A stretch of DNA of 64,000 nt from IMG/VR virus record IMGVR_UViG_3300035670_000028, positions 83,187-147,186 of that record; one strand, 5' to 3'. Of this stretch, positions 2,436 through 61,052 are shown piece after piece (the stretch's first letter is position 1; every line of letters begins with the position of its first letter). Origin of the DNA: a virus. The notes under the pieces were generated by a model. It saw only the letters and a program-made list of their open reading frames with translations, ran no database searches and was not told the DNA's origin. Made by a program: the position numbers and the translations under genes.

Positions 2436-3785
2436 GTGAAACTGAAGCACAGCACGCTCGAGAAGGCGATACGCGCCGCACTCTTTGAGGACATCACATA
2501 CCACATGCCTGACGTGGCCTACGGCATTCACGATAGGCCTGGCCCTAAAGAGGACACAGATCCTGACTTTAAGCCAACTGTTCCACCCCAGGTTCCACTT
2601 AAACCCACTGAGATGATGTCGACCCAGCTAGCGGACGAGAAGCCGCCTGTTGAGGATGAGAACTACGCGCCCACCTCCGTGTCAGATCTCAGGCAGGCAG
2701 CCTCTGCTCTCGCTTCAATGGTTCCACCTGATAAGGTTGAGCAGTTCTACAGGCAGATGCACAAGATGCTGGATGACGCGAAGACAGCAGACGCGGACGG
2801 AAAGACAGTTCGCTCCAAGCAGGTCCAGTCCGAGATTGAGGGTGAGGATGAGGAGGAAGGCATGATTTTGCGCAAGGAATCAAGGAAGAGGAACCGTAAG
2901 GTTGACATGCGGCGTGTTGCCGAGTCTATCCGAAAGCTCGCCAAGGTGATCAAGGAGGGACGCTGGGGCGACGAGCCGCTGGGCGCAGGTGATGAGAGAT
3001 CGAGGCTCCGGAGCCCATACGATCCCGAATACGCCAAGAGCAGGTACTACGATGAGCCTGAGTACCAGGACTTCAGCGACGTCGAGGAGGAGACAGCTCA
3101 GGAGGAGGTCGTTGAGGACGCTGATGAGTCGATCCTGAAGCAGCTCGCCCTTGAGTACGGCTTCGGCAAGGACGCCAACTCCATGAGGCAGGCGCTCCAC
3201 AGGCTGTTCAAGCTGATGAACTACATGATCACAAAGATCGGCGCGAAGAACATCGACATCATGATGGGAACTGTTGTGCCAGAGTTCGTGAACACTGCAG
3301 TTGAGGCAGGTATATTTGAGCCCGAGGACGCGACTGATCTAATGACCAATCCTGTTCACGTCAAGAAACTCGACTCGTTCAGGTTCTACTTCAATGAGCT
3401 CTATCGGCCCGTCTACCAGAAGCTTCGAGCTGGTGCTGAGAAGTCTGCACGTGATAAGATCGCGTCCCTCGGCATTCCAAAGGCCATTCAGGACACTGTT
3501 TTCAATCAGGCCACTGGTGGCGCTGAGAGGAAGATGTCGACCATCGTCAAGCGCCTCGAGAAGGCGGGGGTCTCAGCAGCTGATAAGCAGAAGGCGCTTG
3601 AGACAGTGCGTCAAAACTTCACAGCAATTCAGAAGGAGCTGAGCAACATTCCTGCAACCCTCTTGGACAGCGTGCACGATGAGGTCGACCGAATGGGAGA
3701 CAAGAAGAAGCAAGAGATGATTCTCAAGGCATTTGGTCTCACCAAGGAGTGGCAGGAGGAAGAAGCAGCACGTGCCAAGAGGTAA
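2436..3785 (+). CDS. Hypothetical tagged protein (putative virion-associated)
   Basis: 449-aa ORF, N-terminal LEKAIRAALFE motif, ATATTTA at 2398. Confidence 0.75.
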   Translation: MKLKHSTLEKAIRAALFEDITYHMPDVAYGIHDRPGPKEDTDPDFKPTVPPQVPLKPTEMMSTQLADEKPPVEDENYAPTSVSDLRQAASALASMVPPDKVEQFYRQMHKMLDDAKTADADGKTVRSKQVQSEIEGEDEEEGMILRKESRKRNRKVDMRRVAESIRKLAKVIKEGRWGDEPLGAGDERSRLRSPYDPEYAKSRYYDEPEYQDFSDVEEETAQEEVVEDADESILKQLALEYGFGKDANSMRQALHRLFKLMNYMITKIGAKNIDIMMGTVVPEFVNTAVEAGIFEPEDATDLMTNPVHVKKLDSFRFYFNELYRPVYQKLRAGAEKSARDKIASLGIPKAIQDTVFNQATGGAERKMSTIVKRLEKAGVSAADKQKALETVRQNFTAIQKELSNIPATLLDSVHDEVDRMGDKKKQEMILKAFGLTKEWQEEEAARAKR

Positions 3786-3787
3786 CA

Positions 3788-4207
3788 ATGCGTCGATTGC
3801 TCAAAGAGATGATGGAGAACTACCTGGACGATCTCGAGAGCCACACGCCTCAGATTCCTGAAGTTCCAATGCTCAGTAGGATGCCTGGCTCTCAGCAGCT
3901 CCCTGTCAAGCCACGCGCGACGACTTGGGTGGTCGACAAGAGCAAGAATTGCCTGCAGCGAACATTTGAGTTCGACTCTCACACTCGCATGTGCGACTTC
4001 GTTAGGGAGCTGCTCGACTATGAGATGTCGACGCAGCACTACGGCAGGATCCTGTGCGAGTTTCCAAGCGTGTCGATTGAGGTCCGGACCCACGATCTGG
4101 ACGCAGTGACAGAGCTCGACAAGGAGTACGCTAGACACTGCGACATGATTTTTGACGATGTGATTCACTTCCGACAGAATGAGAACTTTATAGATGACGT
4201 CTACTAA
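3788..4207 (+). CDS. Pterin-4-alpha-carbinolamine dehydratase-like (PhhB/PCD fold)
   Basis: LQRTFEF...F...QHY...V.V.THD..VTELD..A..D pattern; HH dyad altered to HY. Confidence 0.7.
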   Translation: MRRLLKEMMENYLDDLESHTPQIPEVPMLSRMPGSQQLPVKPRATTWVVDKSKNCLQRTFEFDSHTRMCDFVRELLDYEMSTQHYGRILCEFPSVSIEVRTHDLDAVTELDKEYARHCDMIFDDVIHFRQNENFIDDVY

Positions 4208-4643
4208 AAAACAGAAGATCGATGACGAGTGGTCAAGAGTGTCGCAGAATCCTGACAACATGATTGTGAGCGATGTCATTAAGGAGAGCATAGACAAGCT
4301 GCTCAGTGTCAAGGACACAGCGGTTTCATCAGTGCCACCAGTTGTCTCACTCTCTGGAGAGGGTATTGAGCTTAGCATGGAGATGAGCAGGATTGACATG
4401 GCACCCAATGGGTGGTCTGTGTCCTGCATTGCTGGGATGAGTGACGGATACTCTCTGATTGGCACAGATAGGAAGAAGTGGAAGAGGATAGCAGTCTGCG
4501 CTGAGCCAGGAGCAGCTCCTCTCTGGCAGGCAGACATAAGGGCTGATGTGATTCGCGTGGAGGTTGAATTCCCCGCAGCCACAGGTCTCAGCATTGTGAA
4601 TCTGTCTTGCTCCAACGAGCGTGAACAAACACGCGTACTGTGA
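4194..4643 (+). CDS. Hypothetical protein
   Basis: ORF in operon context. Confidence 0.6.
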   Translation: MTSTKKQKIDDEWSRVSQNPDNMIVSDVIKESIDKLLSVKDTAVSSVPPVVSLSGEGIELSMEMSRIDMAPNGWSVSCIAGMSDGYSLIGTDRKKWKRIAVCAEPGAAPLWQADIRADVIRVEVEFPAATGLSIVNLSCSNEREQTRVL

Positions 4644-4666
4644 ATATTTAAGGGCTGGAGACCAAG

Positions 4667-4882
4667 ATGTCACACCCAGAAGATGATTATCAGGACGACC
4701 TAAATGAGTCAGAGATGGCTCGAACCTTTCAGTTCGACAAGTTTGTCGAGGACCTCGAGCGTCGAGAGAGGCTCCGCCGAGAGATGTATGAGAACGTTCC
4801 GACAGACCACAACCAGCTGAACAGGCAGCGTGACGCTCAGAATCGAGAGCAGCTTCACAACAGAATTCGGTGGTCTCGATGA
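4667..4882 (+). CDS. Hypothetical protein
   Basis: GGAG SD, ATATTTA at 4644. Confidence 0.7.
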   Translation: MSHPEDDYQDDLNESEMARTFQFDKFVEDLERRERLRREMYENVPTDHNQLNRQRDAQNREQLHNRIRWSR

Positions 4883-5646
4883 GCACCAAGGACATTAAGT
4901 CCCTCGACATCCTTGTTAAGACTCTCGCCTCTCGAGTGATCAAGGAGACCCTATCACCGCTCCAGGGCAAGGAGACCGAGGAGGACCGCCAGCACGTGAT
5001 GGCCAAGGAGCTCCAGTCAATCCGCAAGGCGCCCAGGTCTAAGTCATCAAAGGACGAGGACCTCGAGGAGGCTGAGGACGAGGAGAAGAAGGAAGAGCCC
5101 TCAGATGATGAGGGTGAAGCTGAGTCTGCCCCTGAGGAGAAAAAGTCCTCTGAGTTCGTCTCCAAGAAGATTGCCACGGGCAAGGAGGAGCCAAAGAAGC
5201 CGAAGGCCGTGATTCCTGACCCCACAGAGATCAAGGACGTCACGTTCAATCAGGTCGTCAATATGATGAACATGATGCGATCAGGCAAGTCTGCGAAGGA
5301 TCCTGACACCAAGAAGAAGCTTGACTCCTACTTCAAGAACCTGAATCCCGGAGAGAAGCAGGCGCTCTTCGTGCTGTTAAGCGGTCTGACCCAGATTCTT
5401 GCAGGTGGTGTCGAGGGAGATGAGGCGCCTGATCCTGGCAAGGTTGGAATCAAGATACGGCCCAAGCCCTCTGACAAGGACCGACCTGCAAAGACGCCTG
5501 AGAAGGTCATGAAGACGCCCGGGTCACCTGCCTCCGTCACAAAGCCGACTCCTGCTGCCGATGAGAATCTTCCCATCATCGTGGGTGAGGCTGCTGATCG
5601 GTCAAATGTGCTGAACAGGGTTAGAAAACTTATGGTGAGGTCATGA
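4879..5646 (+). CDS. Hypothetical charged protein (putative virion-associated)
   Basis: ATGA overlap; LVKTLASRVIKE motif. Confidence 0.75.
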   Translation: MSTKDIKSLDILVKTLASRVIKETLSPLQGKETEEDRQHVMAKELQSIRKAPRSKSSKDEDLEEAEDEEKKEEPSDDEGEAESAPEEKKSSEFVSKKIATGKEEPKKPKAVIPDPTEIKDVTFNQVVNMMNMMRSGKSAKDPDTKKKLDSYFKNLNPGEKQALFVLLSGLTQILAGGVEGDEAPDPGKVGIKIRPKPSDKDRPAKTPEKVMKTPGSPASVTKPTPAADENLPIIVGEAADRSNVLNRVRKLMVRS

Positions 5647-5966
5647 AGATCACTAAGAAGCAGCTTAGGATGCTCATAGAGCAGGCGGTCGTTGAGAGTG
5701 TGACCGGCGAGAGAATGCACCGGTGCTTCCACGGTAATTTAGTCCCATGGGGCACGCAGGAGTGTGTTGACGATATCTCAGCGCGCATGGACGACGCGCG
5801 GGCAGTTCGAGACGAGTGCGACAACCGCACTGACAAGCGTGATTACTACAACGGCGTGCTCAAGGTGCTCCGGCGCGAGCTCCGTGACGCTCAGAAGGTG
5901 CTAGGTCTCAACGTCGAGTCCGATCAGCCCGAGGACGACAACATCCTGCTGGACGACGAGGTCTGA
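5643..5966 (+). CDS. Hypothetical tagged protein
   Basis: MKITKKQLRMLIEQAVVE N-terminus. Confidence 0.75.
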   Translation: MKITKKQLRMLIEQAVVESVTGERMHRCFHGNLVPWGTQECVDDISARMDDARAVRDECDNRTDKRDYYNGVLKVLRRELRDAQKVLGLNVESDQPEDDNILLDDEV

Positions 5967-5967
5967 C

Positions 5968-7251
5968 ATGGGCGGCGTAGCAGGACACCTCTCGCACCTC
6001 CATGAGTCAATGGACCTCACGTTCGGTGAGATCAAGAGCATCCTTCAGGATGTTGCCACGGCGAACATCAGCGCGCTCGAGAAGGTGGACGGACAGAACA
6101 TCTTCTTTGGCTGGGACGCGAAGACAGGCCAGGTCCGCACTGCTAGAAACTCCGGAGACATCGCGAAGGGCGGCATGACCCCCAAGGAGTACGCGGACAA
6201 GTGGAAGGGTCACCCAGCTGAGTCTGCGTTCATGAGCGGTTTCTCAGCGATTGAGCAGGCCATCAAGAGCATGAGCAAGAAGGACCTGACCGCGATCTTC
6301 GGCAAGAACAATGACAGGTACGTCAACGCTGAGATCATGTACAGCGGCAATCCCAACATGATCCAGTACGATGGAAACTACATCGTGGTGCACAACCTAC
6401 AGTCATTCGCCGGCGGTGAGCAGGGAGTCGTCGACACGGGAGAGTTCGACCAGCTTGTCGCCGCAATTGAGGGCTTCGATGCGAAGGTGTCTCGGCAGAA
6501 GTGGAAGGTGCACGGACCACAGCTCGTGGCGCTTAGGGACATCAGCGAGGGAAAGCACTACGACAGCCTAGTGGCAGCCCTTGATAGGGCATCAGGTGGA
6601 ATGTCCGACAGCGCGACAATCGGCGACTTTGTGGCTGAGAAGCTTCGTGCAGGCGCTGTGGGAAAACTGAAGATGCCCGAGGAGCGCAAGGAGCGGCTCA
6701 TCGCACGCATCATCGGCCTCACGCGCGGCGATGATCCAAAGTCCCTACCTGACCTCCGTGAGCTCAAGCAGGGACTGGACAAGGCGACGCAGGTCAAGAT
6801 CTCTGAGATGGCCTCCACATCCTCTGCCCGAGGCACAGCATCGGTGGTCGTTGCGCCCATTGAGCGTGCAATCAGTGACTTCGCCATTGAGGTGCTCAGG
6901 GGAATGCAGTCGTTCTTCGTCTCCGACCACGACACCGAGGTGCAGAGGCTGCGCGCTGAGCTCGAGGACGCAGTCAAGAAGCTGCAGTCCGCGAAGGGCG
7001 CCGACGCGAAGACAATAGGCGACATGCTTGTGAGGCATCTCGAGAAGCTGGGACACGTCGAGAACGTCGCGCAGTCCATCGAGGGTGTTGTCTTCGAGTA
7101 TCCTCCTGGCAGCAAGCAGCTCTACAAGCTTACAGGATCGTTCGCCATGGTCAATCAGATCATAGGACGTGCTCGACGGATGAGTGAGGGCGACGCACCT
7201 GTAACCGAGTCACGTAGTCGCGGATACTTAGCTGCATTCCTCCTAGGATGA
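5968..7251 (+). CDS. Ligase-like covalent nucleotidyltransferase-fold protein
   Basis: EKVDGQN (motif I KxDG), EGVVF (motif IV), YKL (motif V); HLSHLHE N-terminus. Confidence 0.6.
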   Translation: MGGVAGHLSHLHESMDLTFGEIKSILQDVATANISALEKVDGQNIFFGWDAKTGQVRTARNSGDIAKGGMTPKEYADKWKGHPAESAFMSGFSAIEQAIKSMSKKDLTAIFGKNNDRYVNAEIMYSGNPNMIQYDGNYIVVHNLQSFAGGEQGVVDTGEFDQLVAAIEGFDAKVSRQKWKVHGPQLVALRDISEGKHYDSLVAALDRASGGMSDSATIGDFVAEKLRAGAVGKLKMPEERKERLIARIIGLTRGDDPKSLPDLRELKQGLDKATQVKISEMASTSSARGTASVVVAPIERAISDFAIEVLRGMQSFFVSDHDTEVQRLRAELEDAVKKLQSAKGADAKTIGDMLVRHLEKLGHVENVAQSIEGVVFEYPPGSKQLYKLTGSFAMVNQIIGRARRMSEGDAPVTESRSRGYLAAFLLG

Positions 7252-7254: not shown

Positions 7255-8454
7255 ATGCCCTACACAATCAAGAAAGAGAAGTGCAAGAAGTCAGACGGAG
7301 GCAGCGGCAGTCACAGGCTTCGATACACGGATAAGAGCGGAAAGAAGCACAGCTCCTGTCACTCATCCAAGAAGAGCGCGCAGGGATCAATTGCAGCGAT
7401 AGAGATGCGTCGAGAGGAAGACGAGATGAGTGTTAGGGAGGAAGTAATGTCTGAGATCTTATTGAGAGAGTCTATTCGTGTAATTTTAAGTGAAGCAGGC
7501 AATCTGTCAGCACGAGAAATGCAGAATAGAGCAAAGCGTTGGGATATCTTTCTACAAAAGATGAAAGAGAAGTCTCCGTTTTTTGATCTTGAAGACAATC
7601 AGTTTGTAATACCTGTCGCAGGAAATAAAGCACTTGTTTCAGCTCTCAAAACACAGGATCCTGATGCATACAATGCTGCATTTCAAAGTGGAATTACAAC
7701 GATTCCTCCTGGATCGATTTCGACTCCTTCTAATCTTAAGAAAACACCAGAGTTTGGAGGGCTGGCATCGGGTGCTAGACTAGCAAAAGAGCAAGGACAA
7801 ATCGATCAAATACAGGCAGCACTTGACTTAGTTTCTCCTGTCAATGTGTTTGTTGGAAACAAGAAGGCAAAAAATGTTGTTGCAGTTCAAAAAGTAGAAG
7901 GTACTCCAAAAGCAGATGCAGTTTTAGTCGATGAAGCAGGTAAAAAGGTTGCAGCTATATCTCTAAAAGATGCAGATACTCCTACACAGATGCAGCAGTG
8001 GGGAGGAATCGATAACTACGCTGATCATCCTGAAGTTATTGATTTCGTAAATGATCTTAAGGCAGTGCATGCAAATTCGCCCACAGGCAGAATTGAAACT
8101 GCATATTTTCGAAAGCTGAATGATCCTGAATTAGCTAGAAAAATATGTTATGGAAATGGCACAAGCTTTGAAAACAATTGTGACATGATTATTGCGTCCC
8201 AGGCACCAATTCAGATTAGTAGTTCAGGAAAAATAACAGCAACGAATATATTCTATGCGCCAGAAATACCGTCTGGTGAATGGGCACCTACTTTTTGGGC
8301 AACTTGGCGCACTGGCCGTGGTAAAAATCTGGGTCTAACAGATATTCGAGTTGGAGTTTATCCTCTTGCCTGGGGAAGCACAAGAGCAAACGAGCCGCTC
8401 CCATCATCTAAAAAATCTGCACGTACGACTAGATCAAGTAAAACCTCTAGATAA
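7255..8454 (+). CDS. Tagged PD-(D/E)xK-like nuclease fusion
   Basis: GTPKADAVL...ISLK motif; LLRESIRVILSE tag; AT-rich C-terminal DNA. Confidence 0.6.
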   Translation: MPYTIKKEKCKKSDGGSGSHRLRYTDKSGKKHSSCHSSKKSAQGSIAAIEMRREEDEMSVREEVMSEILLRESIRVILSEAGNLSAREMQNRAKRWDIFLQKMKEKSPFFDLEDNQFVIPVAGNKALVSALKTQDPDAYNAAFQSGITTIPPGSISTPSNLKKTPEFGGLASGARLAKEQGQIDQIQAALDLVSPVNVFVGNKKAKNVVAVQKVEGTPKADAVLVDEAGKKVAAISLKDADTPTQMQQWGGIDNYADHPEVIDFVNDLKAVHANSPTGRIETAYFRKLNDPELARKICYGNGTSFENNCDMIIASQAPIQISSSGKITATNIFYAPEIPSGEWAPTFWATWRTGRGKNLGLTDIRVGVYPLAWGSTRANEPLPSSKKSARTTRSSKTSR

Positions 8455-8473
8455 ACACAGCGAGTAGCTACAA

Positions 8474-8743
8474 ATGAAAAATTCATTAAGAACATCGATA
8501 AGAACAATTCTCAAGGAAGAGATCACCTCTGCCGACAAGAAGGAGATCGAGAAGATCGCCCGAAAGCAGGCAGAACTTACTCTCAGCCGCGAGCTTGGCC
8601 CGGACGTCATGAAGACCATTCGCGCTGAGGTCGAGAAGGTGACTGAGAAGACGCTCGGCGGCAAGGAGTCCCAGGCTCAGATCGAGGAGCTCGTGGTGGC
8701 AGTTGTCAAGCGCCTCTACAAGGACATCACGGTCGGCAGGTGA
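8474..8743 (+). CDS. Hypothetical tagged protein
   Basis: LRTSIRTILKEE N-terminus. Confidence 0.7.
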   Translation: MKNSLRTSIRTILKEEITSADKKEIEKIARKQAELTLSRELGPDVMKTIRAEVEKVTEKTLGGKESQAQIEELVVAVVKRLYKDITVGR

Positions 8744-8826
8744 CCAAGGAAGACCTCAAGTGGCCGCTAGGCCTCGTGCTCATGCTGTATATGCTGGGCT
8801 TCGCCCTGTACAGCAAGTTGTGCTGA
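8740..8826 (+). CDS. 28-aa membrane micropeptide (not in ORF track)
   Basis: GTGA overlap; MTKEDLKWPLGLVLMLYMLGFALYSKLC. Confidence 0.45.
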   Translation: MTKEDLKWPLGLVLMLYMLGFALYSKLC

Positions 8827-8912
8827 TGCCAGAGGTCCTATAGGACATCCGATTGCCGACCATGGTTATACCCATTCGTCGGATTCGAATCAATCTGTGA
8901 TCATTCTGGGGG

Positions 8913-9743
8913 TTACAGAATCGATCTGATGAGGGCTCGAAGCAGGGCCTCCGACTGCACCTTTGCTCCGCGCCGCTCGAGTGGGCAGCCGGCTGCGATC
9001 GATTGTGAGAGGATCGTGCCGATCTCCCGCTTGGCAGCGTCGGACATTGGTGGGAGAAGAGCTGAGAATCCCTTGATGTCGCCCTTGCACAGCATGTCTC
9101 TCATCTTGGTGCCGCTGATCTCCACGGTTGCAGTCCTGGGTATACCAACTCCTTGGATGCAGGGTGCCTCGCAGTCAGCTCCCACGCCAGCCCACAGGTC
9201 ACCGAACTGCGCCCTCATCGCCTCGTCCGGATAGTTGCCCACGATGTCCACACTGTCGGAGTAGATGCTGATCACAGTCTCGTCGACCCGTGCCGTCACA
9301 TTGAGGTAGGGCACTCTAAATGACTCACTTCCTGCGTCATATGCAGCCTTGAATGCCTCACACACCTCGAACACGTTCCTCACCGGTGCTGGGCCCACGC
9401 CGTCGTCTGGAGTGAGCAGCCTCACGCTGCTGGGAAGGTCGAGATTCGGTTTGAGAATGTTGGTCCAGATGTACTTCATGTCCGCCCCGAACACAGGGGT
9501 CTCACCGGGAGCGGGCACCTCAATCTTGCGGCCACCCTTTGTGAGAGGCCTCTTATCTGATGGGTCCTTGACCGACTTTGTGCCGCGACCAGAGTAGGAG
9601 ATGAACACACCCACCACGTCGTTCTCAGGAAGGGCTAGCTCCTTCGCAGCCTCTGTGACCCTTAGCCCTGCTGAGATCTGCACCAGCATGTGGTGCCCCG
9701 CGTGGTAGGGCTTCGCGCTCATAGGTACCAGACCAATTTTCAT
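8913..9743 (-). CDS. HxGH nucleotidylyl/cytidylyltransferase-like protein
   Basis: KPYHAGH and ISGTKMR motifs; C-terminal EALLRALIRSIL tag. Confidence 0.75.
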   Translation of the reverse strand: MKIGLVPMSAKPYHAGHHMLVQISAGLRVTEAAKELALPENDVVGVFISYSGRGTKSVKDPSDKRPLTKGGRKIEVPAPGETPVFGADMKYIWTNILKPNLDLPSSVRLLTPDDGVGPAPVRNVFEVCEAFKAAYDAGSESFRVPYLNVTARVDETVISIYSDSVDIVGNYPDEAMRAQFGDLWAGVGADCEAPCIQGVGIPRTATVEISGTKMRDMLCKGDIKGFSALLPPMSDAAKREIGTILSQSIAAGCPLERRGAKVQSEALLRALIRSIL

Positions 9744-9754
9744 GTGTTCTCTCC

Positions 9755-9791
9755 GGAGTATACTTAGCTGTGACAGCCATAACTATACTCC
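9755..9791. promoter_or_regulatory. Imperfect 37-bp palindrome holding two opposed ATANTTA promoter motifs
   Basis: GGAGTATA...TATACTCC arms; ATACTTA (+) at 9760, ATAGTTA (-) at 9786-9780, between divergent genes. Confidence 0.6.
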
Positions 9792-9812
9792 TGACCTGTC
9801 AAGAGATAACAG

Positions 9813-11093
9813 ATGAACGAGAGGCAGCTAAGAGGTGTGATACGACAGATTCTGCATGAGCAGAAAAGTCGAAGGACTCTTCTAGAGTACGGAGACGATG
9901 GCGATGGCGATGGCGGTGCACTCTATAAAGCATTTGTATCTCCATTTGTTGATGTCCTTCAGGCAACTAAACTCGCGAGTCAAGGCATTCTCAACTCGAT
10001 CAAGCTTGTTTTTAAGACACTAATCACGCTAAGTCCAAAGAAGCTTGTTGAGGCTCGAAATGACTACACAAAAGTCAAAGACACTCTAGACAAGGAATGG
10101 GGGCCTCTCATGAAGAAGGCCAGAGACTCTGTCGAGAACAGCGACTTTGGTCTTGTCACATTTGCAGTTGCTCCGAATCTATTTTTCGGGTATCAGCTTG
10201 CAAAGTTTGGAGCTGACGCGCCAGGAACCGTTGTTGATTATTTTGAGGGTGCTGGGTGGGACGTTCCTCTGGGTGAGTGGATAAGAAAGACACCCGATGA
10301 GAGAGACTCAAGTGGTAGAGGCGGAGGAGGACGTGACGATGATGAAAGTGAGGGTGGCATAATGAAGTCCCTCCGAACGTTCTTCTTTGGTGAGGGTGTT
10401 AGTAGCAAGATTGGACCTGACGGAAGACTGCTAAGCGAGGCAGAAGAGGATGAGAAAAAGCAAGACAAATCAGGCCTCTCTAAGTCCAACATCAATGAGA
10501 AGATTAACGAATACTTTGCAGAGACGGGCTTCGATAAGACGCTCGATGATCTAGCCGATCAGTTTGTGAAAGCAAAGCAAAATCACGCTGATAAGCTTGT
10601 TGCAGCCTCTAAGCAGCAGACAGACACTCTCAAGGCATTCGCAGCTGCGAAGGACATCCCTGAGTTCGAGAAGGTTATTGAGTCCTCAAAGAAGCTCGGC
10701 GCTGATGTCTCAGAAATACAGAAGAAAATTGATGAGCTCAAGAGAGACATCACAAAGAAGTCTGAGGATCTGCTCGAAGATCCAAAGTTCAAGGAAGACA
10801 TCAAGAAGAAAGCAAAGGGAAAAGAGCTTTCAGATGCCGACATGAAAAAGGCTACAGAAAATGCAGCAGCTAAGGCTGCTGAAGAGGCCATTGGTGAGCT
10901 CAAGAAAAGCGTGAGTGATGCCCTTAAAGAGTCATTCGACCAGATAAAAAAGCAGATACGAGATGAGCTGACAGATGACATGCCAGATCAAAAGAGCCCA
11001 TTCTACAAGGCATTTGCCGCATCACCTCGCGGTAAAGAGATTCTTGCAATAGTCGATAAAGCAGTCAACTCTGTGGGTCCCACCGGTGGATGA
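9813..11093 (+). CDS. Hypothetical tagged helical protein
   Basis: MNERQLRGVIRQILHE N-terminus, 426 aa. Confidence 0.8.
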   Translation: MNERQLRGVIRQILHEQKSRRTLLEYGDDGDGDGGALYKAFVSPFVDVLQATKLASQGILNSIKLVFKTLITLSPKKLVEARNDYTKVKDTLDKEWGPLMKKARDSVENSDFGLVTFAVAPNLFFGYQLAKFGADAPGTVVDYFEGAGWDVPLGEWIRKTPDERDSSGRGGGGRDDDESEGGIMKSLRTFFFGEGVSSKIGPDGRLLSEAEEDEKKQDKSGLSKSNINEKINEYFAETGFDKTLDDLADQFVKAKQNHADKLVAASKQQTDTLKAFAAAKDIPEFEKVIESSKKLGADVSEIQKKIDELKRDITKKSEDLLEDPKFKEDIKKKAKGKELSDADMKKATENAAAKAAEEAIGELKKSVSDALKESFDQIKKQIRDELTDDMPDQKSPFYKAFAASPRGKEILAIVDKAVNSVGPTGG

Positions 11094-11286
11094 TCTCCGC
11101 CTAATCATTCGTGAGATTCTGCTCGAGGAGTTCATCGGCAACAAGGGCGGAGTGAACTACTACCAGATGGGTGGCTCTATCGGAAAACCTGAGCTCTACA
11201 ATCTAGACTCCAAGGGAAGGCCCACAAGAGATCCGGGCGTCCCAGGACTCAAAAAGCGTAAGAGAAACAGAAAACGCAAAGAGTGA
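11086..11286 (+). CDS. Small tagged protein with basic tail
   Basis: LRLIIREILLEE. Confidence 0.65.
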   Translation: MDDLRLIIREILLEEFIGNKGGVNYYQMGGSIGKPELYNLDSKGRPTRDPGVPGLKKRKRNRKRKE

Positions 11287-11309
11287 CTCAAATATTTAGG
11301 AAAGACGCC

Positions 11310-12236
11310 ATGAATAGAAGAGAAGAGCAGGTAATCCGCGATTACGTTCGAATGCAGTTGATAGAGCAGCGTCTACACGAGGCGTCGCAGGGAATGCTAA
11401 CAAAAGCACTCGAGACTGTCACTGATAAGATTGAGTCCGTTCTGAGCAATCTCAGGCAGCTAGGCGGCGATCGCAAAGAGCTACTAGACACGCTCAAGAA
11501 GAACGATGGAACTGAAGCCCTGTCTGCTATTCAGAAACAGGGTGGTGATCTCACAAAACTTGTGAGTGTCCTAAAGACTGCTACACCTGAGCTCAAGGAG
11601 GGCACGAGAGCCCACCGACGTCACCTCCTCGCAGAGGCTAGAATGCGAGTAACAGACAGGAGGGTGCTCATCAATGAGTCACTGACACTTTTTGCTGCAA
11701 CAGGGCTAGTGTTTGCAATCATTGGTGGAATTCCACTTGTGCTTAAAGCACTGGGATGGATTGTTGGTAAGACAAAGTTTAAGTCAGCAGCAGAGAAGAT
11801 AAACAAGGCAGCTGAGTTCTTCCATCACCTCGAAGAGGCGTGGATGAGTCTCATTCCAAATAAGCCGCTCTACGCTGTCTACATAATGCTCGAGAGTAAA
11901 AATGAACCGGAGCGTGTTGCGAATCTCAAGATATATGAAGAGGATCCAGAGAATCCTGTTAAGGGCGGCGTTGGATCCAGATCAATGACATTTGAGGAAT
12001 TTGAAAAGTCAAAGCTGAAAGTTAAGTACGAGAAGTACGCTTACGCAATCATTATGCTGCCGTGGCTCATAAGCGGTCTCACACAGCTCCATCATGCACT
12101 GCATGGGTGGCTTGGTGCGGTGGAAGCCGCTGCCACCGCTGAGAAGACGTTGTTTGTGGGCACTGCCACTGCCGATGTTGTGACAAAGGGTGCTGCAGAG
12201 CTATCTGCTGCTGCTAAAGCGCTGTCTTCTGTCTGA
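11310..12236 (+). CDS. Tagged protein with hydrophobic segments
   Basis: IRDYVRMQLIE; TM-like LFAATGLVFAIIGGIPLVL; ATATTTA at 11292. Confidence 0.75.
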   Translation: MNRREEQVIRDYVRMQLIEQRLHEASQGMLTKALETVTDKIESVLSNLRQLGGDRKELLDTLKKNDGTEALSAIQKQGGDLTKLVSVLKTATPELKEGTRAHRRHLLAEARMRVTDRRVLINESLTLFAATGLVFAIIGGIPLVLKALGWIVGKTKFKSAAEKINKAAEFFHHLEEAWMSLIPNKPLYAVYIMLESKNEPERVANLKIYEEDPENPVKGGVGSRSMTFEEFEKSKLKVKYEKYAYAIIMLPWLISGLTQLHHALHGWLGAVEAAATAEKTLFVGTATADVVTKGAAELSAAAKALSSV

Positions 12237-12293
12237 TTTACAGATCTTCTGCGCACATTACTATTCTCTGAGATTTCTATCCTGGAGAGCGTA

Positions 12294-12659
12294 ATGTCGA
12301 AGACTGGCAAATCAAAGAAGTGGGTCCCACAAATTGAGTATGAGGAGGCAGAGAACGGCCTCACGTCCAACATACCATTTATCACTGTTCCAGACGGTGA
12401 GGAGATGCCTAGGATGCTCTTCGTCTTTGAGTCAAGGGACACGGGCGAGATCGAGCCAGGTCCGGAGGGTGAGGATGTGCCTGTGGTCGAGCTCAACCTG
12501 CATCAGTACGTGAACATGGTAAACCTGAAGATGGGTCTCACACCTGCTGAGTACGATAGAGTGCGGTTTGTTCTCGGCCTCGATCCCCTGAAGAAGGCTG
12601 AAGAGGCGGGCAAGAAGATAACAGATGCGGTTCGAAAGAAGGTTGAAGGATCTAACTGA
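12294..12659 (+). CDS. Hypothetical protein
   Basis: GGAG SD, ORF. Confidence 0.7.
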   Translation: MSKTGKSKKWVPQIEYEEAENGLTSNIPFITVPDGEEMPRMLFVFESRDTGEIEPGPEGEDVPVVELNLHQYVNMVNLKMGLTPAEYDRVRFVLGLDPLKKAEEAGKKITDAVRKKVEGSN

Positions 12660-12720
12660 CTTCAATGTAAACGATGCGAACTTCACATATAATTCCTTGC
12701 GGCTCTAGCAAGGAATACTA

Positions 12721-13383
12721 GTGGCATCAATTACAAGAGATATTGCAGTAAAGTCAATTCAGAGAATGACGCAGTTTCACAAAGAGACGAATGATCTCTT
12801 TGAGAAGTATGGCATGGATCTACTCTCTGATCTCGGAAGAAGAAATACTCTACTCTCTACTGCGCAAGAAAAATTCTTTAGTGATTCACTGAGAGAATCA
12901 GGCTATACTGTTTCCAGCGATGGTAGACCAGGACAGCCTGATATCATTGTGACAGATCCTGTAACAGGTCACACTTCTGAGCTAGAGTGCAAGCTAACAA
13001 CTAGAAACTCGTCAGGCGGTGTTGTTCTTCAGACAGATTATGAGACGCTGCAGAAGAAAGGGACACTCGACTACCTCTACGTGATTGCCAGCCCTGAGTT
13101 CACAGAGTTCTGTGTGCTATACTTCACAGGACTCACGTCGGATGACTTCAGGGTGCCGGCTGCTGGCTCTAGAGGCAAGGCGGGCATGGTCAAGCACCGG
13201 TGCTACAACAAAGCAACTGTTCTTATGGGTGAGTACAGGAGCCTGAGAGCTGATAATCTGTCACGCCTCGAATCGCTCATGGCGTCCAAAATTCCTCCGT
13301 GGAAGAGAAAAAAGTGTGAGAAGTCTCTAGAGTATTGGCGTTCAGCACCCGATCGGCATAGTGTTGTGCTGGAAACAATCTGA
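12721..13383 (+). CDS. PD-(D/E)xK restriction-endonuclease-like protein
   Basis: GQPDIIV...ELECK motif. Confidence 0.6.
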   Translation: MASITRDIAVKSIQRMTQFHKETNDLFEKYGMDLLSDLGRRNTLLSTAQEKFFSDSLRESGYTVSSDGRPGQPDIIVTDPVTGHTSELECKLTTRNSSGGVVLQTDYETLQKKGTLDYLYVIASPEFTEFCVLYFTGLTSDDFRVPAAGSRGKAGMVKHRCYNKATVLMGEYRSLRADNLSRLESLMASKIPPWKRKKCEKSLEYWRSAPDRHSVVLETI

Positions 13384-13428
13384 CAACACGCATAGTTAGA
13401 TTGGACACCAATATACTGGAGAATTTCT

Positions 13429-13929
13429 ATGAAGTTTGACGCAGATCGTTTCGCAAAGCTCGCAGGCCTTCCAGCTAGTGACAAGGCTGGGGCAGCTGCA
13501 CCAAAGTCCTCCGCCTCGCGCTCTGTTATGACTGAGGGCCGCCGCGCTGCAAGGGCAAAGGCTCCCGTGCTCAATGAGTCTGCAGAGGTTCAGAAGCTTC
13601 GTGCTATCATTCGCAGAGAGACTCTCTCTGTCATCAAGGAGATGCGCGAGGGCGCACTCAGCAGGGTTCAGGGGAAGAAGTCTCTGAACGAGGCGGTCAC
13701 AATGGGCTTCTACGGTCCAGGGTTCGGTGGCAAGTCCTTTATCCTCGGCGGTCCAATGACCTCAGCTTCTCGTTTCGCCAGCCTCAAGGAAGTTGACGAG
13801 ATGGACGAGGTCGACGAGATGGACGAGGTCGACGAGATGGACGAGGTCGACGAGATGGACGAGGTCGACGAGATGGACGAGGCAGACGACAAGCATGAGA
13901 TGGACGAGGCAGACGACGACGAAGAGTGA
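13429..13929 (+). CDS. Tagged protein with acidic DEMDEV repeats
   Basis: RFAKLAGL and LRAIIRRE motifs; ATAGTTA at 13392. Confidence 0.8.
   Translation: MKFDADRFAKLAGLPASDKAGAAAPKSSASRSVMTEGRRAARAKAPVLNESAEVQKLRAIIRRETLSVIKEMREGALSRVQGKKSLNEAVTMGFYGPGFGGKSFILGGPMTSASRFASLKEVDEMDEVDEMDEVDEMDEVDEMDEVDEMDEADDKHEMDEADDDEE
13795..13884 (+). repeat. 18-bp coding tandem repeat GACGAGATGGACGAGGTC (4 perfect + 1 near-perfect)
   Basis: Read directly. Confidence 0.95.
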
Positions 13930-14408: not shown

Positions 14409-15227
14409 ATGGCAGAACGCAAGACTCGAGTGCTCCTGATCGACGGTTACAACATGCTCCACCGCTCACGGAGCGGCTGGACAAAGGGCGAGAATCCCAT
14501 CATCTTCAACTTCTTCAGGTCCTTCCGTGCTGTCGTGGACAAGTTCAAGCCTGACGTCACCTACTTCGTCCTCGAGGGGCGACCTGTCAAGCGGCTCGAG
14601 ACGATGGCCGAGTACAAGGGGCAGCGCGAGTACCACGACCGCGACGACTTCAAACGACAGCGCAAGTGGATCATCCAGAAGCTCAAGGAACGCTTCCCGG
14701 TTCGTGTGGTTCGGCACCCCCACTACGAGTGCGACGACGTCCTCGCCGCGCTTGCAACAGTGCGTCACCCTGACGCCGACTGTGTCGTGGTGTCCTCTGA
14801 CACCGACTTCCACCAGCTCCTCCAGAGCCACAAGAGCCTCAAGCTGTTCAATCCCGTCAAGAAGGAGTTTGTTCAGACGCCGGAGCACGACTACGTGGTC
14901 TGGAAGGCCCTCCGCGGTGACTCGTCCGACAACATTCCCGGCTTCAAGGGTATCGGTGACAAGCGCGCCCTGCAGCTCGTTTCCGATCCTGCTGCCCTCG
15001 AGGAGTTTCTCGCCGAGCCCGGCAATCGCGAGCTGTTCGACCGCAATATCAGCATGATCAGGTTCCACGACCTCAGCGCAGAGCTGTCTGCTCTCGAGAC
15101 GCACTTCTGCGACGCCGAGGTCGACTGGCAGTCTGTTCGGACTGACTTCAATGACATGAAGTTCTTCTCCATCACGACTCCCAAGTCCTGGGACAAGTTC
15201 GTCAAGACATTCGACAGCCTCACCTGA
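14409..15227 (+). CDS. 5'-3' exonuclease / flap endonuclease (PolA N-terminal, T4 RNase H family)
   Basis: LLIDGYN, YKGQR, ECDD, SSDTD, GDSSDNIPGFKGIG motifs. Confidence 0.92.
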   Translation: MAERKTRVLLIDGYNMLHRSRSGWTKGENPIIFNFFRSFRAVVDKFKPDVTYFVLEGRPVKRLETMAEYKGQREYHDRDDFKRQRKWIIQKLKERFPVRVVRHPHYECDDVLAALATVRHPDADCVVVSSDTDFHQLLQSHKSLKLFNPVKKEFVQTPEHDYVVWKALRGDSSDNIPGFKGIGDKRALQLVSDPAALEEFLAEPGNRELFDRNISMIRFHDLSAELSALETHFCDAEVDWQSVRTDFNDMKFFSITTPKSWDKFVKTFDSLT

Positions 15228-15278
15228 TTTACCCAGCGCAGCGTGCAGATAGGATTTCTGCATTCCACGGAGGTATGT

Positions 15279-15473
15279 ATGACAGCTCGTAAGCCGGTGA
15301 GTGACCGGGATCTTGTATCACTTAGACAGCGCGGCCTGATCCTCGCTGAAGAGACTGCTTTCTGGCAGGACGGCGTTCTAACAGTAGAAAACCTTATCAA
15401 TAAGCAGCAGAGGCTACTGACAGTCGATGTCAGCACTCTACTAGAGTCAAATAGAAGGGTGCTAAAGGGCTGA
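15279..15473 (+). CDS. Small hypothetical protein
   Basis: GGAGG SD; TGATG coupling to groEL. Confidence 0.65.
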   Translation: MTARKPVSDRDLVSLRQRGLILAEETAFWQDGVLTVENLINKQQRLLTVDVSTLLESNRRVLKG

Positions 15474-21918: not shown

Positions 21919-22314
21919 ATGACAGCAAACAATCAGTACTACATGGGTGAGAACTTTGTGCCGGCGTATCAAATGTCGGCAACGCCCTTCGTCACATCTT
22001 CAAACGTGACGCTTGGACAGACGAAGGAGATAGCGTTCGGAAACGTGACCCGTTTCCTGATCGTCAAGAACACCGGCGCCTCGAGCACGATGTTGGCGGT
22101 GGGGTTCACACAGAACGGCCTCAAGCCTGCCAACTCCAACTACTTCCTGCTCAGCGGCTCCGAGGCATTCTCAGCTGAGCTTCGTGTGGACAGGGTGTTC
22201 ATCTCTGGCAGCGCCGGCGCCCCGAACTTCACAGTCGTGGCGGGCCTCACAGGCGTTGATCCTAGCAGGTTCCTCCTGGTCACCTCCTCAAACGGATTCA
22301 ACGGAGTAGGTTGA
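21919..22314 (+). CDS. Beta-rich putative structural protein
   Basis: S/T/G/N-rich beta pattern; ATACTTA upstream. Confidence 0.65.
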   Translation: MTANNQYYMGENFVPAYQMSATPFVTSSNVTLGQTKEIAFGNVTRFLIVKNTGASSTMLAVGFTQNGLKPANSNYFLLSGSEAFSAELRVDRVFISGSAGAPNFTVVAGLTGVDPSRFLLVTSSNGFNGVG

Positions 22315-23882: not shown

Positions 23883-24200
23883 ATGGCAGGATCTGATAGC
23901 ACAAACGCACCTGGGCGTCCATGGACGATTGTAGGCACATTCTCAACGTACGAGGCTGCTTCCGCAAAGGCAGCCCAGCACAAGGGCCCGAGGAACGTCG
24001 AGGTGAAGATCAAGAAGCTGTCGACAGGCTTCACGGTTCGAACTCGTCAGGAGGAGCGTGCGGCATCTCCTGTTCATCAGGAGTCCGCGCCCTCAGGCGC
24101 AGTGAAGAAGACCAAGATGAAGGCGAAGGAGCGGCGTGCTCTGGAGCGCAGCGCCAGCGCTGAGGACTCTCTTGATTCGCCTGCTGAAAAAACTTCCTAA
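23883..24200 (+). CDS. Hypothetical protein
   Basis: AAGGAGG SD. Confidence 0.65.
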   Translation: MAGSDSTNAPGRPWTIVGTFSTYEAASAKAAQHKGPRNVEVKIKKLSTGFTVRTRQEERAASPVHQESAPSGAVKKTKMKAKERRALERSASAEDSLDSPAEKTS

Positions 24201-35664: not shown

Positions 35665-35665
35665 C

Positions 35666-35977: not shown

Positions 35978-36075
35978 TATTTGCCCGCTGAGAAGTGATA
36001 TTTAGACCGGTGTACAACTGATTGGAGTGCTTTAAGATGAGGAATCGCTCTTCTAACACAGCAGAGACAAGGAAG

Positions 36076-38065: not shown

Positions 38066-38128
38066 TTTATACAATAGACAATACTTATAGCCAGTGATAT
38101 CTCGATAAATTATCTGAAAGGGTTAACA

Positions 38129-58723: not shown

Positions 58724-58738
58724 CTTATACTTAGAGAA

Positions 58739-59251
58739 ATGCAGAGAAATTCTACGCTTCGCCGCCTCATACGAGAGATGCTCCTCACAGAGGACGCCAT
58801 TGAGATGGGTGCCATTCGCAAGTCGCTGGAGATGGTGAAGGGCAAGCAATTCAAGAAGGTGCTCGATGACACGAACGAGAAGATAGGCAAAGAGAAAGAC
58901 ACAAATCCTGAGGAAGTTGAGTCACTCAAGTCTGCTTTGAGCGTGCTCAACATGATCGCTCAAGCTCCCGAGGCTGTGAAGGCCCTTGAGAAGGGCATTA
59001 AGATCGAGGACCTCTACGCCGCTGCAGCGAAGATGAACGACAAGCAGAAGAAGATAAACGACCTCTGGGACCAGATGACGATCGATCCTGAGAAGTCTGC
59101 CGTTCTTGATAAGAGCATCATCGATGAGTTCACGAAGGAGATGCAGACCAAGGTGGCGAGACTTCCTGATGAGGCATTCCTACCGAACACTGATGAGCAG
59201 CTGGACGCCTACCTGAAGCAAAAGAAGGGCGTGCGAGTCTCAAAGGGTTGA
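58739..59251 (+). CDS. Tagged hypothetical protein
   Basis: LRRLIREMLLTE; ATACTTA at 58727. Confidence 0.75.
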   Translation: MQRNSTLRRLIREMLLTEDAIEMGAIRKSLEMVKGKQFKKVLDDTNEKIGKEKDTNPEEVESLKSALSVLNMIAQAPEAVKALEKGIKIEDLYAAAAKMNDKQKKINDLWDQMTIDPEKSAVLDKSIIDEFTKEMQTKVARLPDEAFLPNTDEQLDAYLKQKKGVRVSKG

Positions 59252-59256
59252 AACGT

Positions 59257-59796
59257 CTACTCCCAGTAGACGGTCTCACCACGTCTGTAGTGCTTTAGGT
59301 TTGCCTTTGCGTCCTCTCTCGTGAAGTGGTTGTCCTTCAGCGTGAGGAAGTTGTTGGGAAGAAGTGCGAACTGGCCGCTCTCGAGGCCAATGAGATTGAG
59401 TGGCTTGTGCTCAGATGGGTATCGGGAGAAACCGTCAGCCCAGTCAATCATGACTCCGGTGTGCCGACCCTTTGCCTTGAAAGGCGCGTGTACATCACAC
59501 TGCAGCCCCTCGAGGTACTTCGCGTAGAAAGTCTCAGTGTCGTCTCCCATTGAGGCCCAGGGCATGAGCTGCTCCCTCGATATGCTGAAGTCTGACGTGG
59601 TTGACATCGCGTGCAGTGGTAGTCCGCTCCAGTGAGCTCCCGACTCCAGGAACACGTGGCACATGAGCGTCTGATATTCCCTCGCGTACACGCCGTGCCA
59701 TATTCCCTGTGTGACGCCATCGGGCATGTTGAGACCGAGAAATTTGTTGCTCACGTTGACGTATATGTGAAATGGTAGGTTTGCGTGCTTTCCCAT
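59257..59796 (-). CDS. Hypothetical protein
   Basis: Clean minus-strand ORF; ESGA...LPL, EHK, GQFA..PNN motifs. Confidence 0.7.
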   Translation of the reverse strand: MGKHANLPFHIYVNVSNKFLGLNMPDGVTQGIWHGVYAREYQTLMCHVFLESGAHWSGLPLHAMSTTSDFSISREQLMPWASMGDDTETFYAKYLEGLQCDVHAPFKAKGRHTGVMIDWADGFSRYPSEHKPLNLIGLESGQFALLPNNFLTLKDNHFTREDAKANLKHYRRGETVYWE

Positions 59797-59876
59797 GGAA
59801 CAATATTACACAGTGATCTTTCTCGATAAACAATGTGAGGCGTGATGATACTTAAGATCACTTGAGGTAGACACAC

Positions 59877-61052
59877 ATGCGTAAGATTCCACTTAAGTTC
59901 TCCGACATTGATTTTGGTACCGATGAGTTTGGCTACATTGAGACAATGCCGGGTGAGGATCCTGATGACGCGGACATGAGGTACACTAAGTACCTCCGCG
60001 ACAAGGGCGTCATGGCTCGAGTGGATCAAATGGGCAACGTCGTTGTTGAGAGTGTGCAGAACAGGCACAGGCTTCTTCGAGAGACAATTCGGGCCCTGCT
60101 TAGGGAGACCGAGGGTGTCGTCACAACGGGAACACCAGTCCCAGGAGACGCTGATCCCAAGAGGCAGGCGCACATCTTTGACTTCGATGACACGCTCGGC
60201 CTCACAAAGAACTCGAATGGTGTCATGCTGTACAAGGATGGAAAGCCTGCTCACAAGACGAAGGAAGAGGCTGAGAAGTGGCTCAAGTCAATGGGCGTCA
60301 CCTCCAAGAACTATCTTGTTGGCCCTGGAGGTGAGGCATTTGAGACACCTGCAGGGCTCGATGGAATCGCAGCATACATTGACTCAGCGGGCCTCGCAAA
60401 GCTGCAGAAGCAGATTCCTCGCTCCCAGTCATCTGTGAGCCCAAATGCTCCTGTTGATAAGGAGGGCGAGTCTCTCTACATTGACTTCACACCCTCCGCC
60501 TATGTGGATGTCGACACGACAGATCCTATTGGCTCAACGATCCAGAAGCTAAAGACCGCAAACAGCCAGGGCTCTGAGACAATGGTTATCACGGCTCGAG
60601 CCTCTGACAAGAAAAAGCCCGGCGTCAATTTTGCAGGACAGAAAGTGGAACCCTCGAATGCTGAGGACATGCAGAAGTTTCTCTCCTCGCAGGGAGCGGC
60701 TCCGTCCCAGGGTGTGCTCGGCGTGCAGGGCGCGAACAAGGGAAATGAGATCATTAATAAGTTCTTCTCATCTAGATCACCAGATGAGCAGCCTGAGGAA
60801 GTTCACTTCTACGACGACCTCTCCAAGAACACGGAGGAGGTTGACGCAGCTGTCAGCGGAAAGGTTCCCGCCGAGACCTTCATCTACGGTCCAGGTGAGT
60901 TCGCCCACGATGAAGCTAGTCCGGACAATCCAAGCAAGTCATCACCTGCCAATCCTGAGCTCGTCGCCAAGCAGGACGAGGAGGGTGATGTCAAGAAGGA
61001 GGGTCTTGATCCCTACCTCGCCCGAATTCTCCAGCTGGCCGGTATCCGATAG
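59877..61052 (+). CDS. Tagged HAD-superfamily phosphatase
   Basis: FDFDDTL, ITAR, K, FYDD; both tag types; ATACTTA at 59848. Confidence 0.8.
   Translation: MRKIPLKFSDIDFGTDEFGYIETMPGEDPDDADMRYTKYLRDKGVMARVDQMGNVVVESVQNRHRLLRETIRALLRETEGVVTTGTPVPGDADPKRQAHIFDFDDTLGLTKNSNGVMLYKDGKPAHKTKEEAEKWLKSMGVTSKNYLVGPGGEAFETPAGLDGIAAYIDSAGLAKLQKQIPRSQSSVSPNAPVDKEGESLYIDFTPSAYVDVDTTDPIGSTIQKLKTANSQGSETMVITARASDKKKPGVNFAGQKVEPSNAEDMQKFLSSQGAAPSQGVLGVQGANKGNEIINKFFSSRSPDEQPEEVHFYDDLSKNTEEVDAAVSGKVPAETFIYGPGEFAHDEASPDNPSKSSPANPELVAKQDEEGDVKKEGLDPYLARILQLAGIR

Follow-up and report, generated by a model that had tools for sequence, protein, structure and literature searches.

Two portable terminal peptides as candidate capsid-address tags in large T4-like phages, one of them shared with the tail of the prohead scaffold

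The 64,000-nucleotide (nt) stretch of viral DNA analyzed here (hereafter referred to as the window) corresponds to bases 83187–147186 of a 147-kb IMG/VR record, IMGVR_UViG_3300035670_000028 (CheckV completeness estimate of 44%), and encodes a series of unrelated proteins carrying one or both of two short peptides. Tag 1 has the consensus M-K/R-I-T-x-x-Q-L-R-x-I-I-R-E-E, and tag 2 the consensus R-W/M/F/I-x-K/Q-L-A-G-I/L. The main new result is that the prohead scaffold protein, as judged from alignments, has tag 2 as its conserved C-terminal tail. At the level of sequence, the motifs were shown to be real, portable, selected as proteins and limited to a phage lineage with a gp21-type protease, and their genes to have a promoter-like box, ATAYTTA, in common with virion genes. 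We consider it probable that both tags are removable capsid-address peptides, tag 1 resembling the capsid targeting sequence (CTS) of T4 and tag 2 mimicking the scaffold tail; we place more confidence in this reading where tag 2 is concerned than in the case of tag 1.

The record comes from a large, uncultured, aquatic T4-like myovirus, with two tandem tail-sheath paralogues, a neck protein, UvsX, a DnaB-type helicase and a ribonucleotide reductase (RNR). The sheath paralogues, of ~1030 amino acids (aa) each, lie at positions 7330–13543 of the full record (hereafter referred to as contig positions; all others are window positions unless a relative is named), and, of the cultured phages, Microcystis phage Mel-JY01 has the most similar tail sheath (36% identity). 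A complete relative, IMGVR_UViG_3300030419_008158 (284 kb, 42% G+C; hereafter referred to as G004), has the same pair of sheath genes and is syntenic with the window's phage across structural and replication genes, with core proteins 50–77% identical. The head module of G004 comprises, in this order, a T4-type portal gene, a gene encoding 274 aa, a Peptidase_S77 protease gene, five family-less small genes, a gene for a 543-aa acidic scaffold candidate, and a gp23-type capsid gene. Capsid, portal and sheath proteins all mark the lineage as T4-like.

Tag 2 and the tail of the prohead scaffold

The regular expression R...[LH]AG[LIV] matched five times in the contig, against 0.36 matches expected, and each match lay no more than 17 residues from a protein end. 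Four of these sites are in the window, all on the + strand and all already listed in an earlier note made from the window's sequence; the fifth was found just upstream. RFAKLAGL (13447–13470) occupies aa 7–14, at the terminus of the 166-aa protein encoded by 13429–13929, and RMLKHAGL (37316–37339), followed directly by LSE, occupies aa 10–17 of the 258-aa protein encoded by 37289–38065. RWQKLAGL (39140–39163), with VLE just before it, forms the C-terminus of the product of the open reading frame (ORF) starting at 38129 (ORFs are hereafter named after their first position) and is supported by the regular expression, an alignment in which it is invariant among six orthologues, and a structure model. 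RILQLAGI (61023–61046) forms the C-terminus of the protein encoded by 59877–61052. The fifth copy is the C-terminus of a 593-aa Lys/Ala/Glu-rich protein, encoded by contig positions 80040–81821 and ending ..RILKLAGIKDEE.

The same peptide ends the proteins encoded just before the capsid gene. The 543-aa scaffold candidate of G004 ends ..DRWAVLAGIGK and the acidic protein encoded at this position in Mel-JY01 ends ..ERMKKLAGIVK, the two being homologous over their C-terminal domains. A scan of IMG/VR for RWxKLAGI gave at least 119 matches, and the following counts refer to the matches listed. Ninety-three of 119 were 0–4 residues from the ORF end, 15 were N-terminal and 11 were junk. A gp23-type capsid gene lay within ~100 nt downstream of 60 of the 74 ORFs with a C-terminal match and enough downstream sequence, and the residues R, W, L, A, G and I were invariant in an alignment of 41 scaffold tails. 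Non-scaffold bearers include the DGHHRW family of protein 38129, in which ERWQKLAGI is invariant in all seven members. The scaffold protein of T4, gp22, ends otherwise (..VYAKVASRF), and the only cultured-phage or named homologues of the scaffold C-terminal domain were those of Flavobacterium phage vB_FspM_immuto, Mel-JY01 and the uncultured LR756508, for none of which a virion proteome was found in the literature library searched.

Two further long proteins end in this tail. G004 15200–16573 encodes a long Lys/Ala/Glu-rich low-complexity protein ending ..RWQKLAGIK and has an ATAYTTA box 19 nt upstream, unlike the contig gene 80040–81821, which has none within 100 nt. The products of both are candidates for abundant internal head proteins.

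Protease-type sites are arranged around tag 2 according to its position in the protein. The prohead protease of T4, gp21, cuts after Glu in L/I-x-E, and replacement of this Glu by Asp stops processing, but not targeting (PMC9026906). Among the matches listed, an [LI]xE site directly follows N-terminal tag 2 in eight of 12 unique sequences, against a background of 3% (p = 3e-10), as in LAGILKE, LAGIITE and LAGILQE, or LSE in 37289. In C-terminal cargo tags the same positions read LAGI-I/L-K/N-G/D-stop and are free of Glu; the sites lie directly ahead of the tag, as LILE, AIME, LIVE and VLLE before RW, VLE in 38129 and ISE in the 593-aa protein. The 41 aligned scaffold tails have an invariant hydrophobic-x-Glu ~35 residues from their end, and the capsid proteins keep L58-x-E60, 27 residues ahead of a conserved VRR motif; the LTE65 site of T4 lies 33 residues ahead. 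Such an orientation rule, as read from these alignments, is what a removable address peptide predicts, and the polarity of the cleavage sites is a specific, testable prediction of that reading.

Tag 1, its distribution and its sites

The core expression L[RQ]..I[RK] matched 23 times in the ORFs of the contig, against 2.2 ± 1.4 (maximum 8) in 200 shuffles, and a profile made from the matches recovered 21 contig ORFs at ≥9.6 bits. A six-frame scan of the contig with the profile gave 23–25 matches, all in plausible coding frames (22 on the + strand and one on a real minus-strand gene), indicating a low false-positive rate. In Mel-JY01, used as a control, profile 1 gave nothing above 5.1 bits and profile 2 a single match at 9.2 bits; this phage has the tag-2 scaffold tail, and the tag-1 system was not found in it. 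None of the phages that bear tag 1 is cultured. The only tag-1-like matches in its genome are two repeats (IIRAVIREEI and AIRKIIREEF) in a 190-aa protein encoded beside the tail lysozyme gene, at 162421–162993.

At the conserved positions of tag 1, Leu and Arg are each encoded by all six of their codons and Ile by all three, and the core is only 49% identical at the nucleotide level. Synonymous codons thus vary freely, placing selection at the level of the protein, and a DNA- or RNA-level signal was rejected on this basis. In IMG/VR, 109 stretches matched a degenerate DNA pattern encoding ITxxQLRxIIRxE, and nearly all of them have M-K/R just before the match, although the pattern left these residues free; tag 1 is therefore an exact N-terminal leader. 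Position 2, which the pattern left free, is K/R in 97 of the 99 unique sequences; position 14, likewise free, is Glu in 87, giving I-R-E. The leader begins more than 100 small, mostly orphan IMG/VR proteins, with a median length of 115 aa. Column identity outside the tag was 7% for 94 bearers, no Pfam or PHROG family unites them, and neither database has a family built on the tags. The exceptions among these family-less bearers are two pentapeptide-repeat proteins and one SLT protein ("internal virion protein with endolysin domain").

The same pattern was found only 20 times, about chance level, in 596 Gb of bacterial and archaeal genomes, and a general bacterial motif was accordingly rejected. 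These 20 stretches include about five true leaders on phage-looking contigs of metagenome-assembled genomes and eight internal motifs from Streptomyces. The Streptomyces segment (AITRVQLREIIRREGL) is conserved near the C-terminus of a large protein family and is a chance match to the pattern, unrelated to the phage leader. Homologues of proteins from the window's phage or G004 were present at 98 of the 109 IMG/VR loci. Peptidase_S77 (gp21-type) is encoded by 11 of the 14 records with the tag, among them all six with a completeness of ≥90%, and the three records without it are fragments (32–44%). The peptide is kept across phages of 42% and 54% G+C and in more than 100 contigs.

G004 has ~45 tag-1 matches, with 46 of 49 on the coding strand. 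Four of its ORFs (273550–274377, 274326–275036, 185415–186140 and 283159–283842) each contain two in-frame copies ~130–170 residues apart, a polyprotein-like arrangement of two tagged modules. Four neighbouring paralogues in G004 (221025–226571) start with M-N/K-LLREYIR.LL.E, a variant leader near the LLRE.IR.LL form of window ORFs 7255 and 59877. Searches by other routes added little: tblastn with a 22-residue consensus of the tag gave nothing useful, the query being too short to be informative; no close relative was found in a search for loci related to tagged protein 9813; a 404-aa tagged structural-module protein had no tblastn match in cultured phages; and a full-text literature search for the core strings of both tags found no paper.

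Fourteen tag-1 sites in the window were counted as supported, at ≥9 bits, and two as weak. The longer list given in the earlier note holds for these 14; four of its entries (ORFs 2436, 4879 and 11310 and a first copy in 33782) were supported by neither profile, and the C-terminal copy on minus-strand ORF 8913 is weak. Nine of the supported sites, all on the + strand, are N-terminal: 5643–5684 (MKITKKQLRMLIEQ; 107-aa orphan; 16.2 bits with profile 2 in the six-frame scan), 8474–8524 (89 aa; 19–20 bits), 9813–9869 (426 aa; 20.2 bits), 11089–11130 (ORF 11086, 66 aa; 19.7 bits), 35666–35716 (103 aa; 18.1 bits), 36076–36126 (209 aa; 16.7 bits), 36716–36769 (189 aa, weakly Dps-like; 16.6 and 24.2 bits with the two profiles), 38129–38182 (348-aa DGHHRW, ParB/Srx-like protein; 15–20 bits) and 58742–58795 (ORF 58739, 170 aa; 16.2 bits). 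Four others on the same strand are internal: 7447–7500 (aa 65–82 of 399-aa ORF 7255–8454; 14.0 bits), 13588–13635 (aa 54–69 of the 166-aa protein 13429–13929, with LNE upstream and IKE downstream; 14.2 bits), 37613–37663 (aa 109–125 of the 258-aa protein 37289–38065; 14.6 bits) and 60063–60113 (aa 63–79 of the 391-aa HAD-like protein 59877–61052; 11.7 and 9.4 bits). The remaining + strand site, 34094–34147 (17.4 bits), is the second copy in ORF 33782–34165 and lies near its C-terminus (aa 105–122 of 127).

The weak C-terminal helix on the minus strand (8916–8957; ALLRALIRSIL-stop) belongs to a 276-aa HxGH-motif protein and is borderline, with 9.6 bits from profile 1 and 5.7 from profile 2. The last 18 residues of a PP-loop ATPase (24136–24780, + strand; TilS/QueC-like, E = 4e-34) also match weakly (5.7–11.7 bits), possibly by chance. 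Upstream of the window, canonical MRITEGQLRRIIRQE starts several further small proteins and two genes within the structural operon at the contig start.

Late promoter-like box, cargo proteins and the head module

ATAYTTA has 34 copies on the + strand of the contig and three on the minus strand and shows no conserved element upstream; 27 copies lie within 75 nt of a + strand gene start. The box is found within 100 nt upstream of 11 of ~25 tag genes and 16 of 185 other genes (Fisher p = 3e-5), and the remaining tag genes of the window sit further down operons headed by it, bearing out the earlier description of ATAYTTA-headed units. In the window's phage it precedes the sheath gene, the homologue of the gene at the tube position of G004 (genome 15410–15898) and large tail genes; in G004 it precedes portal, scaffold, core, neck, sheath and tube genes. 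To judge from this placement, ATAYTTA behaves as a T4-style late promoter. Housekeeping enzymes had been described as untagged, and GroEL, ligase, RNR, helicase and UvsX indeed carry neither tag nor box.

Eight copies on the + strand of the window are associated with tag genes. The box at 4644–4650 heads the + strand operon 4667–7251, which includes tag gene 5643; that at 32450–32456 heads operon 32483–35977, with tag genes 33782 and 35666; and that at 35998–36004 heads 36076, 36716 and 37289. The others are at 7224–7230 (31 nt before 7255), 9760–9766 (53 nt before 9813), 38081–38087 (48 nt before 38129), 58727–58733 (12 nt before 58739) and 59848–59854 (29 nt before 59877).

The tagged proteins had been described as completely different from one another, and BLAST agrees with this view: similarity is confined to the tag in most pairs and extends over 57–79 residues only among four small upstream proteins. 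The functions assigned to them in the earlier note fared less well. Searches of Pfam, NCBIfam and PDB sequences left most of the cargoes nameless; most are orphans, and enzyme is a mostly putative label for them. The Dps-like label of 36716 is weak (E = 0.06 to PDB 2wla), as is the HAD-like label of 59877 (DUF2608, below the cut-off), and searches of domain libraries and PDB found no family for the proteins labeled nuclease and HxGH transferase. A ParB/Srx-like identity is plausible for 38129, on the basis of its invariant DGHHRW motif and weak fold matches; Foldseek with its model returned nothing at E ≤ 0.001, giving only weak ParB-N, Noc and SerK rows. The AlphaFold model of this protein, from an alignment of seven sequences, has a predicted template-modelling score (pTM) of 0.70 and a core at residues 80–316 with predicted local-distance scores (pLDDT) of 80–97; tag 1 (helix 5–22) and tag 2 (helix 331–344) are placed on low-confidence arms outside this core.

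Comparison with G004 illustrates the mobility of the tags relative to their cargo. The first 70 aa of 7255 form a basic module that is a separate gene in G004 (176029–176268), and the internal tag 1 lies at the module joint. Tag 1 precedes the domain of the HAD-like protein in the window's phage and follows it in G004, and the ParB-like protein of G004 has a 138-aa extension ahead of a degenerate tag. The 500-aa product of 34162–35664 (+ strand), with a weak cupin match and DUF5824, matches over its first 93 aa a G004 protein with an internal tag 1.

Tag 1 was also found on four of the five tag-2 proteins of the contig (p = 7e-4). A pair of small genes follows the protease gene closely in five relatives, with one intervening ORF of 119–180 aa in four of them. 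The products of the pair (core1 and core2) start with MAK-I/L/M-T/S-K/R-x-M/D-L-K-x-I/L-V-KECLVEIL.E and MAKKTKLTPALLKKLVLEE. With a tolerant profile, obtained by down-weighting the number of sequences, core1 and core2 beside the protease (N-terminus MAKITKRMLKGIVKE..) rank 26–30 of 355 G004 N-termini; only the true tags come before them, and their scores exceed the 99th percentile of the Mel-JY01 control. The N-terminus of the capsid protein (e.g. MKSFTIDQLAQGIRERH) is tag-like by eye and was not significant with either the strict or the tolerant profile. A complex prediction, with alignments, for the G004 capsid protein and the last 50 scaffold residues gave a score of 0.01, which speaks neither for nor against an interaction.

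Three other regions of the window were noted. The GroEL-type chaperonin gene (15473–17110, + strand; Cpn60_TCP1, E = 5e-68) has neither an ATAYTTA box nor a tag. The 131-aa protein encoded by 21919–22314 (+ strand) is 37% identical to the product of G004 82035–82439, the small gene directly after the prohead protease gene; it appears to be a copy of a head-module gene, distant from the tail and neck genes of the contig, and is headed by an ATAYTTA box at 21891. At 4347–5732, long minus-strand ORFs (4347–5249 and 5328–5732) overlap a tight + strand tiling (4194–4643, 4667–4882, 4870–5646 and 5643–5966). The + strand set at 4194–5966, which includes a clear tag-1 gene, is more likely to be the real one.

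Proposed capsid addressing, rival explanations and known systems

In the mechanism that we favour, two address peptides would direct otherwise unrelated late proteins of a large T4-like phage into the prohead during its assembly. A protein with tag 2 at either end would be expected to dock like the scaffold, because tag 2 copies the scaffold's C-terminal tail, and would in this way be built into the core; the inner face of the capsid protein is the obvious candidate receptor. Tag 1 would act as a basic amphipathic helix on a flexible arm, in the role of the T4 CTS. Next, cleavage by the gp21-type serine protease, at the hydrophobic-x-Glu between tag and cargo, would release the cargo within the head, from which it may leave with the DNA; injection of the cargo into the host is purely our conjecture. 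A packaging signal of this kind had been suggested in the earlier note, and the portable terminal peptides, the late-promoter genes, the gp21-type protease lineage and the hydrophobic-x-Glu on the cargo side are all consistent with it; the large enzyme cargo that went with that suggestion is mostly putative, most of the proteins being orphans.

Several observations weigh against capsid addressing. No prohead protease, scaffold or gp23-type capsid gene was found in the 147-kb contig of the window; in the absence of protease and capsid genes its head module was judged to be missing, so the link of the tags to protease, scaffold and capsid rests on the relatives. Strict tag-1 profiles did not place head-core proteins or capsid N-termini above background, and tag 1 is present on only ~3 of 35 non-scaffold tag-2 proteins among the IMG/VR matches listed. 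Tag 1 has no significant similarity to MKTYQEFIAE of T4, with which it shares only a loose pattern (MK, T, Q, a hydrophobic residue and I-x-E). In 82 of 94 proteins an [LI]xE ends at tag-1 residue 14, in 27 one ends at residue 5, and 48 more end at residues 19–22, with few beyond; the sites inside tag 1 are weak evidence by themselves, because a helix rich in Glu, Leu and Ile yields them easily. Several internal or C-terminal copies of tag 1 are without a clean site on both sides. Finally, the p-values reported here overstate independence, because many of the sequences counted are orthologues.

Tag 1 might instead dock on another hub (a late-acting phage complex, the phage GroEL, the tail or baseplate, or a host target), in which case only tag 2 would concern the head. 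We regard this as unlikely, even though a chaperonin is among the phage's own products, no head protein was found to bear tag 1 with the strict profile, most tag-1 proteins are without tag 2, and a few of the IMG/VR cargoes are SLT or lysozyme-like proteins placed in PHROGs under baseplate hub or lytic tail proteins. The four scaffold-tail-tagged proteins of the contig that also carry tag 1 point to the head, as do the strict tie of tag 1 to gp21-type protease lineages, the I-R-E formed at a free position in 87 of 99 sequences, and the nature of the next-best profile matches in G004, which are the two genes beside the protease gene.

The remaining two explanations deny tag 1 an address role, and we give little credence to either. 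Gene shuffling could have left the shared N-terminus behind as a by-product, be it a recombination joint for cassettes or the relic of an ancestral duplication. Tag genes do lie in variable islands, with orthologous cargo tagged elsewhere or untagged, and some G004 ORFs carry two tags in one frame; nevertheless, free synonymous variation and 49% identity over the core leave no joint at the DNA level, and neither the persistence of the peptide across phages of 42% and 54% G+C and >100 contigs, nor its exact N-terminal register and conserved Glu at position 14, would be expected of such a by-product. Slightly less probable again, to our minds, is an arginine-rich helix that binds or condenses DNA or RNA for many small late proteins, with no addressing to an assembly site. 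The hydrophobic stripe (I3, L8, I11 and I12) is invariant and, together with the fixed Gln and Glu, typical of a protein–protein helix, the tag is found on enzymes with folds of their own, and its terminal placement and the adjacent Glu sites would be left unexplained; Lys and Arg nonetheless make up 29% of tag-1 residues 1–16, and the internal proteins of T4 are basic and DNA-associated (PMC9026906).

Capsid addressing by tag 1 and tag 2 has its nearest precedent in T4, in which the CTS is present on internal proteins IPI–III and Alt and is removed as a leader by the prohead protease gp21 (PMC9026906, PMC3012670). A review proposes the CTS as a general loading device of T4-like phages (PMC9026906). 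Like this sequence, with which IPII and IPIII begin as MKTYQEFIAE, tag 1 is a short N-terminal leader ending in I-x-E, carried by unrelated proteins in a T4-type lineage with a gp21-type protease; in both cases the cargo is diverse, evolves fast and is encoded by genes dispersed outside the head cluster. The T4 leader, however, has 10 residues, whereas tag 1 has 14–15 and is strongly basic. Its bearers number 23–25 in 147 kb and ~45 in G004, against a handful in T4, its copies are also internal and C-terminal, it is accompanied by a second, unrelated tag, and the system is known here from sequences alone.

Encapsulin cargo-loading peptides are short terminal peptides that address diverse cargo into an HK97-fold shell. 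Unlike encapsulins, the system described here belongs to a tailed phage with scaffold, portal and maturation protease, its tags look removable, and there is no sequence relation. No encapsulin shell gene with cargo in its operon was found, the shell being a gp23-type capsid protein encoded beside portal, protease and tail genes. In herpesviruses, the protease and scaffold (UL26/UL26.5) have one common tail, which is cut off at maturation, and CpmB of SaPI1 mimics the scaffold C-terminus of phage 80alpha. The lineage studied here resembles these systems in reusing the extreme C-terminal motif of the scaffold on other proteins, with a protease-type site a short distance before the tail, but tag 2 is borrowed by several unrelated cargoes and at either protein end. 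The herpesvirus protease has homologues in the T4 protease family (PMC9026906).

The phiKZ-type jumbo phages phiKZ, 201phi2-1 and SPN3US have inner-body or ejection proteins that are processed after Glu by a gp21-like protease (PMC9026906, PMC5694885). Dozens of packed proteins processed after Glu by a gp21 homologue are thus a phiKZ-type feature that the lineage described here would share; those phages differ in using S/A-x-E sites and long propeptides, with no common short leader. The principle of capsid targeting was already established for T4, and the new element, as far as the alignments indicate, is the copy of the scaffold tail on cargo.

We advance more tentatively, and with slightly more doubt than belief, the broader proposal that, throughout a clade of large T4-like phages from aquatic habitats, about one gene in ten belongs to a plug-in system for capsid cargo based on two interchangeable, protease-removable peptides, one of them copied from the docking tail of the scaffold. 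If true, scaffold-tail mimicry would be a cargo-loading mechanism for T4-like phages, and the two short peptides would provide a means of loading foreign proteins into phage capsids from either terminus. There would also be a sequence rule for listing the head-carried, and probably host-delivered, proteins of uncultured jumbo phages. Anti-defence and take-over factors abound in the head-delivered class, and homology is a very poor guide to such cargoes, nearly all of them being orphans. The set of injected proteins would become readable from sequence, and any protein would be addressable to the head from either end.

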